Positions 33,423 through 60,775 are shown, numbered from the stretch's first letter. The stretch is DNA of 64,000 bases from an uncultured delta proteobacterium (GCA_963718965.1 CAVRBJ010000022.1:82479-146478), one strand, 5' to 3'. The notes: generated by a model not told the origin, from the letters alone. Program-made: numbers and translations.

Positions 33423-33607
33423 GCCAAGACCCAGTAACTTCCAAACCGGCAGTTCCGCTGTCCTAACACTTTATAGACCGGTAACTTTGCGCTTTACCCG
33501 TGAAGGTAAATTGCTCTTTTCGGTTCGCACTTGAGTACTAATTTAGCACACTTTTTCAGTTTGTATATAAAAAGTCTCAGCAATAAAATTATTTATTACT
33601 GCAAAAT

Positions 33608-33860: not shown

Positions 33861-33968
33861 CCCCACAAAAGAGGGCATAAAAATTCCCTCTTTAGCGAAG
33901 AAGGTTAGGGGGATTTGTCATGTAGCAAAAAATAACCATGTATCCCCCTTTTTCAAATGGGGATGAAA
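33861..33968. repeat. Double-hairpin repeat, copy 3
   Basis: CCCCACAAAAGAGGG...TTCCCTCTTTAGCGAAGAAGG...TATCCCCCTTTTTCAAATGGGGATGAA aligns along the full length with copy 1. Confidence 0.7.
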
Positions 33969-34188
33969 CAGGCTTGTTTATTGTAAAATTAAATTTTATA
34001 TGATGCACAGGATTGGACATCAGGATGACTCCGGCATAGACTTAAACATACAACTATCCAAACAGCAGCAGAATATGGTAAATGAATTGTTATCCAAAAT
34101 ATGAGCTTGCCGCGTCCACCGTGGCGGACTCGAAATGAGACTTTATTTATCTGTCATGACTGGTGTTCTCATACTTAAAGGTATACGC

Positions 34189-35319: not shown

Positions 35320-35415
35320 AAAAAAGCCGTTCGAGAAGGTCGAACTTCGTATCGTCATTAAAAAAAGATCAGTCTGGGTGCTGGCTTAAGCCCAATGCTG
35401 TTCATTTAAGAGGTT

Positions 35416-35453
35416 CCTTCTCCCCTTGAGGGGAGAAGGTCAGGATGAGGGGT
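35416..35453. repeat. GC hairpin with GGATGAGGGG tail (related to the 41-42 kb direct-repeat family)
   Basis: CCTTCTCCCCttgaGGGGAGAAGGTCAGGATGAGGGG; compare CTCCCTCTCCCCTGGTGGGAGAGGGTTGGGGTGAGGG. Confidence 0.45.
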
Positions 35454-35639
35454 GTTGAAAACACAGCAAAACAACACGGCCACCTCACCTCGCGCCTCTC
35501 CCCCGTGCCGGGGGCGAGGAGGTGTTTTGCTTCAATGAACAGTATTGGACTTAAGCTACCATAAACTGTTTCTCAATAAAGGCAGCGCCCCCTGCTAACT
35601 ATCAGAACGTGCTGGAAAACCATTTCTTAGAAGCTCCTT

Positions 35640-40678: not shown

Positions 40679-40919
40679 AGAACCCTCCACATATAACAAC
40701 GGTTGCCTTTATAAGATTGCCTATAATTGTTCAAAGCGGTTTTTTTTTCAAGAAAATTCAAGACGCCCGGCTAAACTCCTGCTCGCATGAAGTCAAATAT
40801 AAGCACATCCAACCGGCTTGACATGGTGTGTTGACTCTCGATTATATTGAAAATTAAAAACAATCCTGCTAAAAGCATGCTAAAATTATATCCAAAGCAT
40901 CATGGGCTGCGCAAACAAC

Positions 40920-41060
40920 CAGTAGATCATCACATTTGATATTATAAGTTGAGATCACCCTCCCCTTAATCCCCTCACATCAAGGGAGGGGAAAATTGTT
41001 GACTCCCTCTCCCCTGGTGGGAGAGGGTTGGGGTGAGGGAGCCTATAAAATCATATGTGT
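40920..41060. repeat. ~140-bp direct repeat, upstream copy flanking the BON gene
   Basis: AGTAGATCATCACATTTGATATTATAAGTTGAGATCACCCTCCCCTTAATCCCCTC...CTCCCTCTCCCCTGGTGGGAGAGGGTTGGGGTGAGGG, ~90% identical to 42045-42185. Confidence 0.7.
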
Positions 41061-41167
41061 AATCTGCTAGCTATGTGTCATACTTTTTGGTTTAATTAAA
41101 TTTTCAATAATGCCGGGCAAATACATACATACTAACTATATTATAGACCTATAACAAAGGGGAGACG

Positions 41168-42046
41168 ATGCAAACAAACAGAATTTTTTTAAAAGGCACG
41201 ATTAGCATCAAACGTATATGCCTGTCTGGACACGCCGCTGCAGCAGTTCTTTTACTCCTGCTGTGCGTAATTTTGACAGCCTGCAGCCGTGGGCCCTCAG
41301 ATGAAGAGCTGCAAAAAAAAGTCGCTGCAGCACTTGATAATGATACGCAGCTACAGGGGCAAAAACTTGACATTGCCGTCAAGGAAGGCGAATTGACTAT
41401 TGCGGGTGAAGTTCCCACAGACGCAGAACGTCTGAAGGCCTATAAAAAAGCCGCTGACACGCCGGGAGTGAAAAAAGTCAATGACCGTATGAAGCTGCAG
41501 CCACCACCTCCGCCTCCCCGGGTGTATACCCTGCCTGCCGGAACCACGGTGCGGGTGGTTATGCTGAGTGGCGTCGATTCCAGCGTCAACAGGGTTGGGC
41601 AGACCTTTCCATCCAGCCTCGTCTTCGCCCTGACCTCCGGCGATACGGTCGTCATCCCCGAAGGAACCGAGGTGATGGTTATGCTGGCTGAAGCTCAGCA
41701 GGCAGGCCGTTTGCAAGGTGCAAGCCAGCTTGAAGTAACCCTGAAAAGCATCACCTGGCTTGGAACGACCTATGAGCTTAAAAGCGAAACAGTGTCAGCC
41801 GTGGGTGAGTCTCGCGGAAAACAGTCAGCCAAGCGAATCGGCATTGCTACAGGTGTTGGCGCAGCCGTGGGAGCCATTGCCGGCAAAGGCAAGGGAGCGC
41901 TTATCGGAGCAGGTATCGGAGCAGCAGGATCTACCGCCTACCAATTGGCGACAAAGGGGCCGTCAGTGCGGATCCCCGCACAGACCAAGCTCGATTTCAA
42001 GCTGCGTGACGCAGTAACTATTACACTTCCGCCAAAAGAACACTAG
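41168..42046 (+). CDS. Secreted BON-domain protein with a C-terminal glycine-zipper (YMGG-like) segment
   Basis: Signal/transmembrane N-terminus; BON region DNDTQLQGQKLDIAVKEGELTIAGEVPTDAERLKAYKKAADTPGVKKVNDRMKL; GIATGVGAAVGAIAGKGKGALIGAGIGAAGS zipper. Confidence 0.7.
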   Translation: MQTNRIFLKGTISIKRICLSGHAAAAVLLLLLCVILTACSRGPSDEELQKKVAAALDNDTQLQGQKLDIAVKEGELTIAGEVPTDAERLKAYKKAADTPGVKKVNDRMKLQPPPPPPRVYTLPAGTTVRVVMLSGVDSSVNRVGQTFPSSLVFALTSGDTVVIPEGTEVMVMLAEAQQAGRLQGASQLEVTLKSITWLGTTYELKSETVSAVGESRGKQSAKRIGIATGVGAAVGAIAGKGKGALIGAGIGAAGSTAYQLATKGPSVRIPAQTKLDFKLRDAVTITLPPKEH

Positions 42047-42185
42047 TAGATCATCACATTTGAAATTATCAGTTGAGATCACCCTCCCCTTAATCCCCTC
42101 CTATCAAGGGAGGGGAAATATTGGGCTCCCTCTCCCCTGGTGGGAGAGGGTTGGGGTGAGGGGACCAACAAAATCAAATGTGAAG
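42045..42185. repeat. ~140-bp direct repeat, downstream copy (starts on the BON gene stop codon)
   Basis: Direct repeat of 40920-41060. Confidence 0.7.
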
Positions 42186-42399
42186 GCCCACTAGCAGGTT
42201 GTTGAAAAAGTCAATGAAGGCAGGCTGTTTAAAAATGCTCAGATGCAAGGCGCACGAAATCATGAGAAATGAGGCGTACTTTTTGTACGCCGCAGTGAAG
42301 CATGATGAGCGCAACGCAGCAGATGGGCGTTTTTAAACAGCCTGCTAGGCTGAAAGGAAGGTCTATCAGAAAAGTTCCGAATACTAGTACCGCCTTACT

Positions 42400-42445
42400 G
42401 AAAAGAGGGGCCGTCAATATTCCCCCTTTTTCAAAGGGGGATTAA
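42400..42445. repeat. Double-hairpin repeat, internally deleted copy 4
   Basis: AAAAGAGGGGCCGTCAATATTCCCCCTTTTTCAAAGGGGGATTA: start motif joined directly to the second hairpin. Confidence 0.45.
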
Positions 42446-42478
42446 ATAGTCCGATTCCCTCTTTTACATGATACTTTA

Positions 42479-43335
42479 CTATGATTTATTCCGCATTAAC
42501 GGCACGGTAAAAACAATCGAGGCATAGCTGACCGTATCGGTATAATCCTGCAGCAAATCACCCGAGGTATAATACGCCAGCTTTGTTCCCCGGGCTTCCG
42601 GCGGCAGCATCTGGAGCAGCACAGCTATCGGGCGGCTGCCGCAGATAGTGGCGCCGGTCTCATCCACATAGCGCAGAAAGCCGCTGGCGTCGCGGGCGAT
42701 AATTTTTTTAATCGCATCGCCATCGAGCTTTGCAAGGTTCTGCTTCAGCTTGTCGCGAAACGGCATATACCCGAACCGCGGGCCGTAATGCGTAAAATCG
42801 GAGCTTGCCACAACCACGGTCTCTTCATTCATATATTTCCTGAGCTCCGCAGCAGCCACGGCATAGTCATGCCTGCCAAGCTCGCCGACCACAAGGGGCA
42901 CCAGGTCGAATGCTCCCAGCACCACCTGCAAAAAAGGCAGCTGCATCTCAAGGGAGTGCTCGGGCATCTCGGCATGCGAAGGGCCCTGAAACAGCGGCTG
43001 CCGGGCAAGGGCATCGCATATTTTCCGGTCAACGCGCACCTTCCCCAAAGGCGTCTCATAGGCTTCAACCCCAGATACCGCCATGCCGTGCATGCAGGTG
43101 TAATGCGACGGGCCCATGAGGATGACGCGCTTCACCGTCATGCCCTGCAAGGCCTTGTAGCCGCAGGCAGCAGCGCTGCCGGAAAACTGAATGCCCGCAT
43201 GGGGTGAAATCAGGCCGCAGGGCCTGCCCTTGAGTCTCCGGCAGCTGCGCGCCAGCCAGCAGCTCAGTGACCAGCTTCTGTCAGCTCGTCACTGGTGCCG
43301 GGATACCATGATCCTGCTATGGGTGATTTTCGCAT
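42479..43335 (-). CDS. MEMO1-family protein (AmmeMemoRadiSam system protein B-like); N-terminal 30 aa lie in another frame
   Basis: CGLISPHAGIQFSGSAAACGYKAL...VILMGPSHY; upstream frame MRKSPIAGSWYPGTSDELTEAGH matches the family N-terminus. Confidence 0.75.
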
Positions 43336-45176: not shown

Positions 45177-45395
45177 ATGAATACAGCGATATCAGTACGG
45201 CTTCCCAAGAATCTTGCCAGCCAACTCGATAGCATCGCCAAAGAGACCGAAAGACCCCGCTCTTTCATCATTCAGAAGGCACTGGAGTCCTATATCGAGG
45301 ATTTCGCGGATCTCCAGATCGCCCTGGACCGGCTCCACGACAAGGGGGATGAGGTTATTTCAGCCAAAGAGATGAGGAAGTCTCTTGGCCTATAA
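45177..45395 (+). CDS. Type II antitoxin, RelB/DinJ-like ribbon-helix-helix
   Basis: 72 aa; MNTAISVRLPKNLASQLDSIAKETERPRSFIIQKALESYIED; overlaps the toxin gene by 11 nt. Confidence 0.75.
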   Translation: MNTAISVRLPKNLASQLDSIAKETERPRSFIIQKALESYIEDFADLQIALDRLHDKGDEVISAKEMRKSLGL

Positions 45396-45645
45396 TATCG
45401 CCTACAAGAAGTCGGTCGCCCGCGACCTCAAGAAGCTATCGAAGCCCGAGGCGAAACGAATCCTGGACCTCATTGAGAAGGAACTGATCAAGCAGCCTGA
45501 ATCCAATCCTGTGCTCAAGGGTCAGTTTGCCGGGCTTCGCAAGTACCGCGTCGGTGACTACAGGGTGATCTATGCCCTGTTGGGTCTTGATATCCTTATC
45601 CTCAGAATCGGCAATCGTAAGGATGTTTACAAAGGCGAAATCTAA
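45385..45645 (+). CDS. Type II toxin, RelE/ParE family
   Basis: 86 aa; LKGQFAGLRKYRVGDYRVIYALLGLDILILRIGNRKDVY. Confidence 0.8.
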   Translation: MAYNIAYKKSVARDLKKLSKPEAKRILDLIEKELIKQPESNPVLKGQFAGLRKYRVGDYRVIYALLGLDILILRIGNRKDVYKGEI

Positions 45646-45695
45646 CCAGGGCTTGCAAGGAACGCCGATAGATTATCGGTGCGCATCGCGCAACC

Positions 45696-45765
45696 TTTGG
45701 ACTTATGACCAGCCCCGCCAGATAGACTCCCGCTTGTACATATGCCTTCCTCCTGCCAAAAATCC
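45696..45765. repeat. 62-bp direct repeat R1b
   Basis: Second copy of 45036-45105, immediately after the toxin gene. Confidence 0.6.
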
Positions 45766-46056
45766 GTTGATATATAGAGGTCTGTATAACACAGGGATTC
45801 CCCACAAAATGCAGAACGAGGGTTTATATATTGACAATATTTGTATAATTTGAAATAAGCGCCATAGGCTAGAGTTCGGGAAATACAGATGTCTGTATAA
45901 TGTATGTTAATCTATGAGAGATGAAAAATGCCAAAAAGGATCAAATAAGGGATAACCTATATGAGACTTTTGCCAAAAATCTTTCTGCCATAAAAAGAGG
46001 AGACTTTTGTTCATTTCGAGCCAAACATAGAAAATTGTTATATCTGTCCTTTATGT

Positions 46057-46910
46057 GTGAGGTGCTTTACAAAAAATGCCCTAGATCAGGGAAAGCCTAA
46101 TTGCCTGACGATTGAAGATATTCCTCCAAGAGCATTAGGTGGTAGACCATTGGCTTTAACATGCAAACAATGCAATAACAAATCAGGTACTTTATTGGAT
46201 GAACAGTTAAGGAGAAAACTAGCAACTGAGGAATTCGTACTAAAAATACCAGATGCCCATGTTGAAGCATCAATAAAATTTAAGTCGAAGCTTTATACAT
46301 CAGGGACTTTGAGCCACCGAGTTGATGGGGGGCTACAATATTTGTCTTTTCAAAAATGGGTTTCAAACAAAAAAGGGAAAGGGCAAATGCTTCTCAAAAT
46401 TGGAAAGAAAATCTTAGAGTTAATGGAATCAAAGATTTTAAGTTTTCGATAAAAACTTATAAAAAAAATCATCCCAATATTGCTCTTCTCCGTATAGCCT
46501 ATCTTTTAACGTTTAGCAAATTCGGAAATGGGTTTCTTTTTAATCCAAACCTAAATATCATTAGAAAACAAATTCAAAATCCAACTCAAAATATATTACC
46601 GAATTTTGGGGTTTTGGAATTAGAGAATCCATTTAACTCAGGTATATATGTTATTGTAAGCCCAATTGAGTTACGGTCTTTTTTGGTAATATTTTGTTTA
46701 AAAACAAAAAATAGAACAACTAAACATGCTGTAATCTTACCCGGTCCAGATGAATGTTGCATGGAAGTTTACACTAATATGGCTAATCACCAGAAAACCA
46801 ATGGTGGTTTAAAGTTCAATGGAGAACTAATACCATCACTTGATTATCTTAATGATGCACGTCTTAAATTTGCACCTCAGATATTCTGGGACATGCTAAA
46901 TAATGTTTAA
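46057..46910 (+). CDS. AT-rich hypothetical protein with an N-terminal CxxC...C zinc-ribbon-like motif and an HNH-like (E-D-I...C-x2-C-N) motif; one frameshift
   Basis: In-frame upstream NCYICPLCVRCF; IEDIPPRALGGRPLALTCKQCNNKSG resembles the HNH core but lacks the His-His dyad; pieces 46057-46452 and 46356-46910. Confidence 0.4.
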
Positions 46911-46962
46911 CAAAATCACTTCACCCGCTCCGCTCCGGCGGGTGAGCTTTTCATTAAACGTA
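46908..46962. repeat. Imperfect 55-bp palindrome (GTTTAAC...CACCCGC tccgctccg GCGGGTG...TTAAAC), an attC-like or terminator hairpin
   Basis: Left arm GTTTAACAAAATCACTTCACCCGC versus the reverse complement of the right arm GTTTAATGAAAAGCTCACCCGC; 21-nt core shared with 49443-49480. Confidence 0.4.
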
Positions 46963-46981
46963 AAAAGGAAACGACGACAAG

Positions 46982-47731
46982 ATGGAAGAGAGTAGATCGA
47001 GACATATTATAGAACTCGCTAAAGAATTATTGGATGACATTGAACTGAACAGGATCAGTGCTGAGCAACTTTTGTTAAAAGCTAGCAGACTTGCGAGGTG
47101 GATGGGCTCGGAGGAAATCCAACAATGGTTGAAGCTTGAAATGACTGGCTACGACAATAGCAAGGTGGCCCTCAAATATATGTCAATAACTGGCAGGTGG
47201 ACGGACAGAGAAAAAGGAATGGGATACTGGGGGGCCACTAGCCCAACAGGAAGCTACAATACAGGCTCAGAAAGCCAAACTAGCCAGTATGAGAACGCCC
47301 GATATAGGTGGCGACTACGCGAACATTGCCATCACAAATGTTACAAACACGATGAATGCGACAGCAAATCATATTTCTACGTTCAGCGCGATAAAAAGCA
47401 GGGTACTTGCACAGCTTCATCAATTCGTTAGTGAAGTTTATTACAGTCTGTATTTGAAGGATTATCGGAATCAATCTTTGAACGATACAAACGGGACGTG
47501 GATATTCTCATAGCAGAGTCGTGCGGCACAGTTCTAACGCAGATTGCTACCGTTATGGACCGGCTCGTCGAGGGGGATATAGAGGCAATCAGCCAGGCGC
47601 TAACAACGTGCCGTCGTATAATTGAAAGCTTTGCTGATTCTGTTTTCCCACCCAGTGATGAACCAATCGAAATCGGCGGGAATATTCTCAACTTGGGCGC
47701 AGATAAGCATCAGAATAGAATGAATGCCTAA
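46982..47731 (+). CDS. AT-rich hypothetical protein, three frame pieces
   Basis: MEESRSRHIIELAKELLDDIELNRISAEQLLLKASRLARWMGSEE... ; no confident family. Confidence 0.35.
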
Positions 47732-48112
47732 GTTCATCAGCATTCAGAGAGCCAAACGCGGAAGAAACGATTGAGACAGAATCTCTCCAATCTTTTTAAC
47801 AGGGTATCTACGGGTGTGCATAGCGATATTACACCAGAAGAAGCAAGGGCATTATTCTTGAACACATATTTGCTTCTGGGCGAAGTCTTGCATCTGGGAA
47901 AAAAAGACGTTTAACTACCACATACAGCCGACCTCGTACCTCGGCGGCCGATGCAAGCGTTGGGTGGCGCGATTAGATAAATATAAATAAACAACAAATT
48001 GATCAGGTGGGCAGAGATAGTATTTACCTGACACTACCGCCCCTAGCGGCCCCCAAAAAACGTGGCTCCGGAGCACTTACAGAAACTAAACGGAATCAAG
48101 CGCATAGGACCA

Positions 48113-48150
48113 CTTTTTTGGAGCCATCCTGGCCGAATGGCTCCAAAAAA
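48113..48150. terminator. Bidirectional terminator-like hairpin (TTTTTTGGAGCCAT cctggccga ATGGCTCCAAAAAA)
   Basis: Perfect 8-bp stem flanked symmetrically by T6 and A6. Confidence 0.6.
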
Positions 48151-48236
48151 GTTTGTTCAGGAAATAAAAGCCCGGGAGGAAACTGACCTGACTTTCTGAA
48201 GGCTTCCCTAAACTCAAGAGAAAAGGAGCTCCTTGT

Positions 48237-49259
48237 ATGAAATCGAAATTTATGAAAATTATGGCATCTGTTTTTTGTGTCCTCATCATTGGCATGGCGT
48301 TGGGGTATCATTTCATAACATACACACCGCACGGGCGCATGGATTTTTCATCTGGGCTTGTTGTGCGAATTGTAGGTTTTTTCGGCAGTGAGAAAAAAAC
48401 ATCCGACTATACGCCAGAAGAATTTAGAAAAAGAATGGATGGAATAATTCTTCGTGGCCAGAAAAAAATTGAACAGGTAAACAAGGTGGAGGATAAAGAG
48501 ATTGCATGGACCGCAGGCACTATACCCATTAGGATTTACAAACATTCCGATAATAGCCGATTACCAGTCATTATTTACTTTCATGGTGGAGGCTGGGCCT
48601 CAGGATCCATAGCTACTCATGATAGCCTTTGCAGAAAGCTGGCAAAAGTTTCAAATACAACCGTACTATCGGTTGGATATGGACTGGCGCCTGAGGTGAA
48701 ATTCCCAACTCCTCTTGAACAGGGCTATGCGGTCTTGCAATGGGTTGTTGGTAATGCAGTCGATTTGGATATTGATATTAATAAAATTATCCTGGCAGGC
48801 GACAGTGCAGGAGCAACGATTGCCACAGCACTGTGCATGATGTCCAGAGACAGAAACGGTCCGGTTATCAGGTATCAAATACTGTTATACCCCGTAACTA
48901 ATTTGTCCAGCTTTTCAACACCGTCTCACAGGAATTTTGGAAAAGGATATTTATTAACAACAGAATCACTTGAATGGCTGCGGGGGCTGTATTTGAGCAG
49001 CGATGCTGAAAAGACAAATCCCCTGGTTTCACCTCTTCTTGCAAAAAATCTGGGTAAGCTGCCTCCGGCTTTTATTGTCACCGCTCAGTTTGATCCACTC
49101 AATTCAGACGGAAAAGCCTATTATGAAACGCTCAAGGCTGCCGGCAATGATTGCAGATATGAAAATATGCCGGGTGTTTTACATGGATTTATGCAAACAG
49201 AATCTTCAAGGGCAGACGATGTTTTCAGTATGATTGCCCAAATATGTCGTGGTTTATAG
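48237..49259 (+). CDS. Alpha/beta-hydrolase fold-3 esterase/lipase
   Basis: HGGGW oxyanion motif and GDSAGA nucleophile elbow; N-terminal transmembrane/signal segment. Confidence 0.85.
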   Translation: MKSKFMKIMASVFCVLIIGMALGYHFITYTPHGRMDFSSGLVVRIVGFFGSEKKTSDYTPEEFRKRMDGIILRGQKKIEQVNKVEDKEIAWTAGTIPIRIYKHSDNSRLPVIIYFHGGGWASGSIATHDSLCRKLAKVSNTTVLSVGYGLAPEVKFPTPLEQGYAVLQWVVGNAVDLDIDINKIILAGDSAGATIATALCMMSRDRNGPVIRYQILLYPVTNLSSFSTPSHRNFGKGYLLTTESLEWLRGLYLSSDAEKTNPLVSPLLAKNLGKLPPAFIVTAQFDPLNSDGKAYYETLKAAGNDCRYENMPGVLHGFMQTESSRADDVFSMIAQICRGL

Positions 49260-49442
49260 CCGTAATAAATCTTAGCGCTATACTCCGAGCTGCAGAGCAA
49301 GCGCTGCCCTTTGGTTCAAGGTTCACTGCATGTTAATAAAATACACAAACGCCATCTCAGTCCGAAGGGCGGGTGCTAAACCGCCGAATTTAACATGAAT
49401 CACCTGAACAGGAGCGCCCAACGTGGCGCTGCACAGGACGTA

Positions 49443-49480
49443 GTTCCGCTTCGCTCCGGCGGGTGACCTTCTCGTTATGA
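49443..49480. repeat. Cassette-end repeat CCGCTTCGCTCCGGCGGGTGACCTTCTCGTT
   Basis: 21-nt core nearly identical to 46924-46948 (CCGCTCCGCTCCGGCGGGTGAGCTTTTC). Confidence 0.4.
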
Positions 49481-49503
49481 AAAAAATCTTGATTTGCTAC
49501 TCA

Positions 49504-49527
49504 TTTTGATCTATATTTAGATCAAAA
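49504..49527 (+). promoter_or_regulatory. Operator-like palindrome TTTTGATCTA tatt TAGATCAAAA upstream of the second toxin-antitoxin pair
   Basis: Perfect 10-bp inverted repeat 27 bp before the antitoxin ATG. Confidence 0.45.
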
Positions 49528-49553
49528 AATGAGTCTAAATAAGGAGCTATACT

Positions 49554-49838
49554 ATGAAGACCATTTCCATTACTAATGACATTGTCCCTATTGCCGAATT
49601 CAAGGTAGGCATCTCCAAGTGGTTCAAGAGCCTCAAGATTACCGGTCACCCCCTGATCATTACGCAAAATGGGAAACCAGCCGGCGTACTTTTATCACCG
49701 GGCGACTATGATGATCTGGTATATAAAAAATATTTTCTTGATTCCATCGGCAGAGGAATATCTGATGCTGAAAGCGGAAAAACCTATCATACTGAAGAGG
49801 TGCGTGCGGCATTAACCGCAAGAAGAAGTAAGAGATAA
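49554..49838 (+). CDS. Type II antitoxin (Phd/YefM- or ParD-like)
   Basis: 94 aa, immediately upstream of a ParE-family toxin. Confidence 0.6.
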   Translation: MKTISITNDIVPIAEFKVGISKWFKSLKITGHPLIITQNGKPAGVLLSPGDYDDLVYKKYFLDSIGRGISDAESGKTYHTEEVRAALTARRSKR

Positions 49839-49844
49839 GTCCTG

Positions 49845-50141
49845 ATGAAAATCAGATGGACACATGAGGCCCTTGAGCGATTAATCGAAATTGAAGAGTA
49901 TATTTCAAAAGACAGTCCGGGCCGTGCTGTTCAATTTGTTGAAGAACTTATTGAACACGCGGAATTATTACCCGACAAACCACGTATGGGCAGGGCAGTC
50001 CCCGAACTCGCTAACCCCGACATACGAGAACTGCTATTTAAAAAATATCGTATTGTCTATAGGCTTAAAGCAAATTGCATCGAAATACTGACCGTTTTTG
50101 AAGGACACAGAATCCTTCGTATTGATGAATGCGATGTTTAA
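49845..50141 (+). CDS. Type II toxin, RelE/ParE family
   Basis: 98 aa; ...DIRELLFKKYRIVYRLKANCIEILTVFEGHR. Confidence 0.75.
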   Translation: MKIRWTHEALERLIEIEEYISKDSPGRAVQFVEELIEHAELLPDKPRMGRAVPELANPDIRELLFKKYRIVYRLKANCIEILTVFEGHRILRIDECDV

Positions 50142-51644: not shown

Positions 51645-51811
51645 CAGGAGTGTATGTTCTCAAATGCCGGTAAAGAGTTTATCGGCAATCACCTGTAGCC
51701 GCGCCCGTCAAACAATATTTGACATCCCCTGCCGCCTGGGTTAATACATTATGACCTGATTCGTTCCCGAACGAAAAATTTTTTATTTGACACAAAAAAA
51801 TACGTCTATTC

Positions 51812-51913
51812 AATCCCCCTTTGAAAAAGGGGGATACAGGGGGATTTTTTAAATCCTGACAAATCCCCCTAACCCCCTTTGCTAAAGGGGGAATTTTTTC
51901 GCCCCCTCTTTTG
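51812..51913. repeat. Double-hairpin repeat, copy 5 (inverted orientation)
   Basis: Reverse complement aligns end to end with copy 1. Confidence 0.7.
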
Positions 51914-56510: not shown

Positions 56511-56513
56511 TAT

Positions 56514-56560
56514 TTGTCAGGCTGTAAAAAATCCCCCTGTATTCCCCTTTTTCAAAGGTG
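56514..56560. repeat. Double-hairpin repeat, partial copy 6 (second hairpin)
   Basis: GTCAGGCTGTAAAAAATCCCCCTGTATTCCCCTTTTTCAAAGGTGGAATGAA. Confidence 0.5.
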
Positions 56561-56653
56561 GAATGAATAGGCTTATTTTTTAATGTAAAACTCACTATTG
56601 CCCCCTTGTTTGAGGGCCGCTGCACTACAGCCAAACCAGAGGAGCGGGACGAT

Positions 56654-60717: not shown

Positions 60718-60775
60718 GTCCCTTCATCACCCTCTCCGCCATGTATTGAGGAGAGGGTCAGGGTGAGGTGGCATC
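60718..60775. repeat. GC hairpin + GGGTGAGG tail, diverged member of the 41-42 kb repeat family
   Basis: CACCCTCTCCgccatgtattgaGGAGAGGGTCAGGGTGAGGTGG. Confidence 0.4.

Follow-up and report, generated by a model that had tools for sequence, protein, structure and literature searches.

Repeats that bracket a BON-domain gene in an uncultured deltaproteobacterium are probably independent insertions of one MITE family with a BoxC/TM core

The BoxC/PIT/TM repeats were first described in Escherichia coli and, to my knowledge, have been familiar since the 1990s without acquiring an accepted function or mode of spread; the triplex motifs of E. coli and other Proteobacteria are reportedly the subject of work by Bachellier and by Hoyne and Maher in 2000. 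Bacterial MITEs are exemplified by Correia/NEMIS, ERIC, RUP, Nezha and Chunjie, and REP elements carry what is called a 'GTAG head'. BoxC, PIT elements and TM_ECO were recognized as names for one and the same motif by Holder et al. (2015; PMC4666352), who described it as strictly intergenic and often arranged in inverted pairs of two types (A/B), capable of forming an intrastrand triplex in vitro, and situated at loci that are rearranged among E. coli strains (PMC4666352). The same authors never found the E. coli TM motifs together with mobility functions and drew no transposon link (Holder et al., 2015; PMC4666352), and in the summary that their paper gives of the earlier literature, neither promoter nor terminator activity was seen for PIT elements in E. 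coli. Kaplan et al. (2016; PMC5100583) subsequently described the same sequences as a hairpin/G-quadruplex switch. A further system that invites comparison is the integron mobilisation unit, in which a pair of MITEs mobilises the cargo between them (Poirel, 2009, as summarised in PMC3184786).

The window discussed here, meaning the whole stretch of DNA that was analysed, comprises 64,000 nt from an uncultured delta proteobacterium (GCA_963718965.1 CAVRBJ010000022.1:82479-146478), and its relevant features are collected in Table 1. A preliminary description had reported a single 292-aa BON/Gly-zipper protein encoded between two direct repeats, the downstream one starting on the stop codon of the gene, and all of this was borne out. 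The BON domain is found in a profile search with an E value of 4.6e-14, the YMGG Gly-zipper match is sub-threshold, and the N-terminus is of lipoprotein type with an LTAC lipobox; the TAG stop at 42044-42046 is contained in the CTAG (42043-42046) that forms the left edge of copy 2. The repeats themselves are real, since a repeat search aligned 40918-40994 with 42042-42118 at 94% and 40989-41059 with 42112-42182 at 86%, blastn gave 93.3% identity over 120 bp (the core) and 90.7% over 140 bp, and exact matches of 37 nt and at least 26 nt link the two copies where shuffles give an expectation of 0; over the full 152-bp units the identity is 87.4%. The limits originally assigned to the repeats (40920-41060 and 42045-42185) were too narrow, having missed the outer ~10 bp that complete the terminal inverted repeats.

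Genes for a TrkA-type channel, ilvD, Memo, an MFS protein and toxin-antitoxin systems lie near the repeats, and copy 1 is placed between the divergent genes ilvD and BON. Upstream of copy 1 there is a promoter-like site (40818-40845, plus strand) that is not conserved in the BON-carrying relative L003; if this site serves BON, then copy 1 would be in the transcribed 5' leader, and any effect of the copies on the expression of BON or ilvD is putative. A scan for intrinsic terminators predicted none at copy 1 or copy 2. As a side observation on the neighbouring Memo gene, the ORF at 42479-43150 (minus strand) encodes 223 aa and covers just positions 61-269 of the Pfam profile, whereas the orthologues in L001, L128 and L129 have 278-284 aa and that in L002 is likewise short (224 aa); a start-codon problem, a frameshift or a truncation could lie behind the short window version.

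Table 1. Repeat units, core modules, the enclosed gene and other palindromic or triplex-type elements in the window
Feature	Position	Strand	Remarks
Copy 1 of the 152-bp MITE, family W	40919-41070	+	End tetranucleotides CCAG and CTAG included
Left core module, copy 1	40958-40993	-	Looser triplex scan
Right core module, copy 1	41005-41039	+	Exact TM_ECO pattern match
BON-domain/Gly-zipper lipoprotein gene	41168-42046	+	292 aa, between the two repeat copies
Copy 2 of the 152-bp MITE, family W	42043-42194	+	CTAG at both ends
Left core module, copy 2	42082-42117	-	Looser triplex scan
Right core module, copy 2	42128-42162	+	Exact TM_ECO pattern match
Unrelated second palindromic MITE-like element	42215-42350		Arms GCAGGCTGTTTAAAAA; BON-Memo spacer, next to copy 2
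T-rich triplex-motif doublet, remnant half	42423-42448	+	Complete at the equivalent place in L129
Palindromic element, macA/ABC spacer	35384-35556		Own arms GCTTAAGYCCAATRCTGTTCATT around a convergent triplex-motif doublet
Single triplex-type module	60730-60769	+	Triplex scan

Each unit of family W is one long imperfect palindrome without an ORF, bounded by terminal inverted repeats of ~17 bp (left TAGATCATCACATTTGA, right TCAAATGTGAAGGCCCA) and by CTAG, or a one-base variant of it, at each end, and the inverted-repeat arms TRGRYCWTCACATTTGA are conserved in 7/7 aligned copies. Both window copies are predicted to fold end to end as a single long hairpin, with energies of -67 and -75 kcal/mol (z -4.9 and -5.1). 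The core of the unit consists of two G/C-rich triplex-type modules in an inverted, divergent arrangement, with their G-rich tails pointing outward, and the arms outside the core hairpins, ~35 bp in length, are inverted-repeat and family-specific. What had been taken for two GC hairpins per repeat therefore stands as far as the modules go, yet these are oppositely oriented triplex-type modules and the whole unit is one hairpin. With its 152 bp (below ~400 bp), its non-coding sequence and its terminal inverted repeats, the unit has the dimensions of a MITE, and like bacterial MITEs of ~150 bp it also has apparent short direct repeats at its ends, a long stem-loop, intergenic sites, presence or absence among relatives, and nested insertions; unlike typical MITEs, its core is a repeat module common to several phyla that is found in another shell (CTATAGTGA...) as well. 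Rfam searches (at the gathering score and then at E up to 1) returned only sub-threshold matches to eukaryotic miRNA hairpins at the unit, and these were dismissed as noise from a long hairpin. The phage collection held no match to the unit, and matches in the plasmid collection were confined to the core modules.

The modules share one design, in which a C-rich arm and a loop are followed by a G-rich arm complementary to the C-rich one and, after a short linker, by another G-rich arm in mirror image of its predecessor, so that arms 2 and 3 form a mirror repeat and the layout, read from sequence alone, would be triplex-capable. On the minus strand the left module reads CCCCTCCC-TTGAT-GKGAGGGG-ATTAA-GGGGAGGG, and the right module reads CCCTCTCCC-CTGGT-GGGAGAGGG-TTG-GGGTGAGGG. 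The published TM_ECO pattern, CCCTCNCCC N3-6 GGGNGAGGG N3 GGGNGAGGG (Holder et al., 2015; PMC4666352), is matched exactly by the right module of either copy, with 0 matches expected in shuffles, while the left modules depart from it and are picked up only by a looser 8-nt triplex scan. Searched against E. coli, the right module (query positions 83-125) matches 1355/5426 genomes at 86-95% identity, at unannotated sites, and by these sequence criteria it is assigned to the BoxC/PIT/TM_ECO intrastrand-triplex repeat. A likeness of GATCACCCTCCCCTTA to the 3' end of 16S rRNA was dropped from consideration, because the search pattern itself had forced that sequence. Across the window the looser scan detects 11 triplex-type modules as compared to 0 in 20 shuffles, none of them within a listed long ORF and 10 arranged as 5 inverted pairs. 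The correspondence with BoxC/PIT/TM_ECO extends from the pattern and the E. coli matches to the intergenic position and the inverted doublets, and the host locus is rearranged among relatives as TM loci are. The differences are that the window doublet is divergent and pairs a TM_ECO motif with an 8-nt-arm variant (CCCCTCCC / GGGAGGGG / GGGGAGGG), that it is wrapped in ~35-bp arms ending in inverted repeats and CTAG, and that its host is an uncultured deltaproteobacterium.

The ends of the unit repay closer attention. In the seven-copy alignment they read CTAG/CTAG in 4/7 copies, CCAG/CTAG in copy 1, TTAG/CTAG in L122 and CTAC/CTAC in L118. IS5-group elements duplicate CTAG and IS630-type elements duplicate the central TA; because CTAG is palindromic, a 4-bp duplication, a TA duplication and the tip of the repeat itself are indistinguishable at such ends, with L118 favouring the 4-bp duplication and L122 better fitting duplication of TA. 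The window contains only 17 CTAG sites versus ~248 expected from base composition (GATC occurs at 180 sites), and 13 of the 17 fall within 41.0-48.1 kb; three lie at ends of the two W copies, and the site at 42345 is where the second, unrelated element has its right edge. The position of copy 2 on the stop codon would then be accounted for by a (C)TA(G) target, since such sites are few and include a TAG stop with C before it. A parent IS would be expected to have ends reading GTGGATCATCACATTTGA; no transposase ORF was found between matching ends when pairs of TIR-like sites were inspected in the collected loci. One extra TIR-like site in L063 was considered as the end of a parent IS and set aside, as it leads into an ordinary gene and is due to chance or is a remnant.

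Full-length copies of family W also occur at unrelated loci (L063, L118, L119, L120, L121 and L122), of which L063 and L118 represent two copies in the Danish deltaproteobacterial MAG MFD04716.bin.2.188 and the remainder come from four metagenome contigs, with L119 and L120 identical in sequence. Another delta-proteobacterial MAG (L018) has a left-end fragment only, cut by the contig end. The 64-kb window has just its two copies, adjacent to each other, and copy 2 is 94.7% identical to the L063 copy and copy 1 90.8%, as compared to the 87.4% between the two. Since each is closer to the L063 copy than to its partner, the copies are best read as independent insertions from a diversified family, and the same figures led to the rejection of a tandem or segmental duplication, which would have to reconcile only 87% identity with a closer match in another MAG. 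Inside the core hairpin loop of L063 (2234-2374) and of L118 (minus strand) there is a second, nested MITE of 141 bp with ends GAGGCTGTGTCRYAATT, flanked by 3-bp repeats (TCA, TGG), and L101 seems to show the same nesting habit.

Nine syntenic loci, reached through homologues of BON and ilvD, could be read for comparison. BON is located between ilvD and Memo in L001, L002 and L129 (Deltaproteobacteria MAG GCA_016932595.1), and L003 carries BON on a short contig that ends before Memo; none of these four relatives has a match to the 152-bp unit at either site, and the gaps in the alignments of the BON-carrying relatives coincide with the unit. L001, L002 and L003 all end BON at the same codon; in L001 and L002 a C stands before this stop, so that CTAG is already present there. 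In L128, ilvD is next to Memo without BON, and the spacer between them is unrelated sequence with a GTTCGTTAGTCGTTG-type tandem repeat, with no copy of the unit and no solo-repeat scar; in L123-L127 a MazE/PIN toxin-antitoxin pair adjoins ilvD and BON is absent. Homology among all the relatives ends at window position 40770, upstream of the ilvD start by ~90 bp, and the interval from 40770 to ~42496 is a rearrangement hotspot among relatives. The BON gene is resident yet lineage-variable at this unstable intergenic hotspot. The L128 locus additionally contains, at 1-538 on the minus strand, a Y1_Tnp gene that is IS200/RAYT-like.

This comparison of orthologous loci, which the preliminary description had itself put forward, supports its proposals in part. 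That the repeat is mobile is supported by its absence from both sites in the four BON-carrying relatives and its presence at unrelated loci elsewhere. That BON was captured between two copies is not supported, given that the gene sits in the same place without repeats in L001, L002, L003 and L129 and that the copies are independent; nor is the idea of an excision or phase-variation unit, given a BON-less L128 without a solo scar and two copies less alike than each is to a copy in another MAG. With no copies in the L128 spacer or in the BON-carrying relatives, the repeats neither brought BON in nor mark the loss of BON in the sampled lineages.

Other repeats populate the window. Diverged solo copies of the repeat had been described at 35416 and 60718, and these are indeed related triplex modules, although neither is a copy of the 150-bp unit, and the first (35416) is half of a different palindrome: the modules at 35416-35451 and 35482-35519 pair inside the element of the macA/ABC spacer, which measures 320 bp in the window versus 42 bp in L001 and 9 bp in L002. 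In the variant at 35416 all three arms are altered together (CCTTCTCC / GGAGAAGG / GGATGAGG). Copies ~75% identical to the second element beside copy 2 are found in L102, L082, L039 and L085 (Smithella and other deltaproteobacterial MAGs). There is also a family of T-rich triplex-motif doublets of ~85-100 bp (ATCCCCCTTTGAAAAAGGGGGATACAGGGGGA...), present in the window as four copies (286-395, 33883-33982, 51807-51905 and 56512-56581) and one half copy, with another copy in L001. At 4333-4430 of L128 a convergent triplex-motif doublet occupies the MFS-Memo spacer, where the window has none, which makes triplex-motif doublets polymorphic in both directions among relatives. Two further observations concern the window more generally: a c-di-GMP-I riboswitch aptamer at 33445-33525 (minus strand) scores 48.2 bits, above the Rfam gathering score, and an accessory islet at 45177-50141 encodes RHH/ParE, an HNH endonuclease, an AbiTii-domain protein and Phd/ParE, its RHH/ParE part being ~95% identical to L128 and L129 while the flanking housekeeping genes are less conserved.

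I consider it likely that the two repeats are independent insertions of one MITE family with a BoxC/TM core and not the boundaries of a gene cassette. A transposase encoded elsewhere would recognise the ends of the unit and act in trans, and insertion at (C)TA(G) sites would duplicate CTAG or the central TA; the depletion of CTAG would leave few targets, among them the BON stop preceded by C, and BON was resident before the insertions, its bracketing by direct copies being incidental. The data demonstrate the anatomy of the repeat, its insertion polymorphism, its dispersal and the membership of the right core module; the type of transposase and present-day mobility are what I infer here. Points that weigh against the MITE reading are that the collected loci yielded no transposase with matching ends, that a palindromic CTAG could be the tip of the inverted repeat, that 64 kb contain only two copies, side by side, and that Holder et al. 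(2015) never met E. coli TM motifs together with mobility functions. An origin in a REPIN-like system, in which inverted doublets of REP-type hairpins are moved as single-stranded DNA by a single-copy Y1/HUH (RAYT) transposase and not by a DDE enzyme, would fit the core as an inverted doublet of 35-40-nt hairpin modules, akin to the A/B pairs of E. coli TM motifs, as well as the GTRG just inside CTA at each end, which resembles the REP 'GTAG head', and the Y1_Tnp gene situated ~5.5 kb from ilvD in the relative L128. I find this origin unlikely, however, for although the unit does resemble REP/BIME and REPIN-RAYT systems in its inverted doublets of short G/C-rich hairpins in intergenic DNA, it differs from them in its ~35-bp inverted-repeat arms outside the hairpins and the apparent short direct repeats at its ends, and IS200/IS605-type elements do not insert with long outer inverted repeats and short end direct repeats. 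Moreover, a tblastn search of the window and of 122 loci (L001-L122) with the L128 Y1 protein gave no hit, no triplex modules lie beside the L128 Y1 gene within the portion seen, and the available sequence contains no linked RAYT gene.

A functional cassette, whether a MITE-flanked composite that moved in or an on/off switch operated by recombination between direct repeats, I regard as quite improbable. For rare homologous recombination, shared exact stretches of 37 nt and at least 26 nt would suffice, and with the 37-nt block recombination between the copies would be physically possible; BON is, furthermore, variably present among relatives (absent from L128 and L123-L127). MITE pairs that mobilise cargo are known, as in integron mobilisation units (PMC3184786), with which the locus shares two copies of one MITE on either side of a gene, but here BON preceded the arrival of the MITEs and there is no sign of the unit having moved. 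Against a cassette there is also the presence of BON at this locus in four relatives that have no repeats, the BON-less L128 spacer without an element copy, the closer match that each copy has outside the pair, and the finding of no recombinase or integrase among the neighbouring ORFs scanned. Two specific forms were considered and rejected: an integron attC cassette, with no IntI among the neighbours and the RYYYAAC...GTTRRRY core sites absent at the repeat ends, and a MITE-flanked composite transposon, for which the expectation that cargo be absent where the MITEs are absent fails, the four relatives having BON without MITEs. It is very improbable, finally, that the repeats are host regulatory sequence, that is, non-mobile DNA serving as a terminator, insulator or mRNA-stabilising hairpin, with one duplicate on either side of the gene; a very stable hairpin does follow immediately upon the stop codon and copy 1 does lie between divergent genes, but no T-run follows the hairpins, the terminator scan is empty there, relatives have the same gene arrangement without repeats, and PIT elements, as summarised in PMC4666352, displayed neither promoter nor terminator activity in E. 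coli.

The core of the two copies is of modest wider interest. The left-module 21-mer ATCACCCTCCCCTTAATCCCC occurs in more than 115 stretches among the matches listed (species-representative genomes), in MAGs of about ten phyla or candidate divisions with labels that include Deltaproteobacteria, Nitrospirota, Dehalococcoidia, Planctomycetota, Actinomycetota, Ignavibacteria, WOR-3, Schekmanbacteria and Coprothermobacterota. Across MAGs that carry the labels Deltaproteobacteria, Nitrospirota and Dehalococcoidia, the 86-nt core doublet retains 85-91% identity, and the outer arms differ. At least two shells are seen around the same core, W (CTAG-TGGATCATCACATTTGA...) and J (CTATAGTGAAAGC...), the latter having the form CTATAGTGAAAGCAATAAATGTGTTGACATAA-core-TATGTAAACTTATTTATAACCGTTACTATAG in at least 12 copies across 5 MAGs, with flanks that differ from copy to copy and some copies with nested insertions. 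Complementary flanks were seen at other doublets as well: when the flanks of triplex doublets were examined for complementarity, only 12/95 lay above the 99th percentile of a control that is inflated by shared families, which shows several shell families but does not establish a universal rule. Dense clusters of triplex modules were observed in Dehalococcoidia MAGs (L009, L033, L043, L065, L099, L104 and others), with up to 5 anchors per 8 kb and modules sometimes 120-180 bp apart, interleaved with another repeat (GTTCGCCCTTCGATTTCCCTCAGGACGAACC).

It is tempting to propose that the BoxC/TM doublet is a portable core that crosses phyla inside MITE shells with lineage-specific terminal repeats, a possibility that I put forward tentatively and as doubtful at present, together with the weaker corollary that the MITE-BON-MITE arrangement may now be mobilisable or deletable; a limited search of the literature did not find the portable-core idea stated. 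For the BON locus itself little is at stake, the 'cassette' being an accident of two MITE insertions at rare CTAG sites around a resident lipoprotein gene of envelope-stress type. If true, however, a portable core would explain the dispersal of repeats that Holder et al. (2015) could not tie to mobility, and its residence in units with inverted repeats, apparent end duplications, empty sites and nested insertions offers a testable route of spread, namely transposition in trans. A MITE-borne core may also bear on the apparent instability of loci that carry BoxC/PIT/TM motifs.
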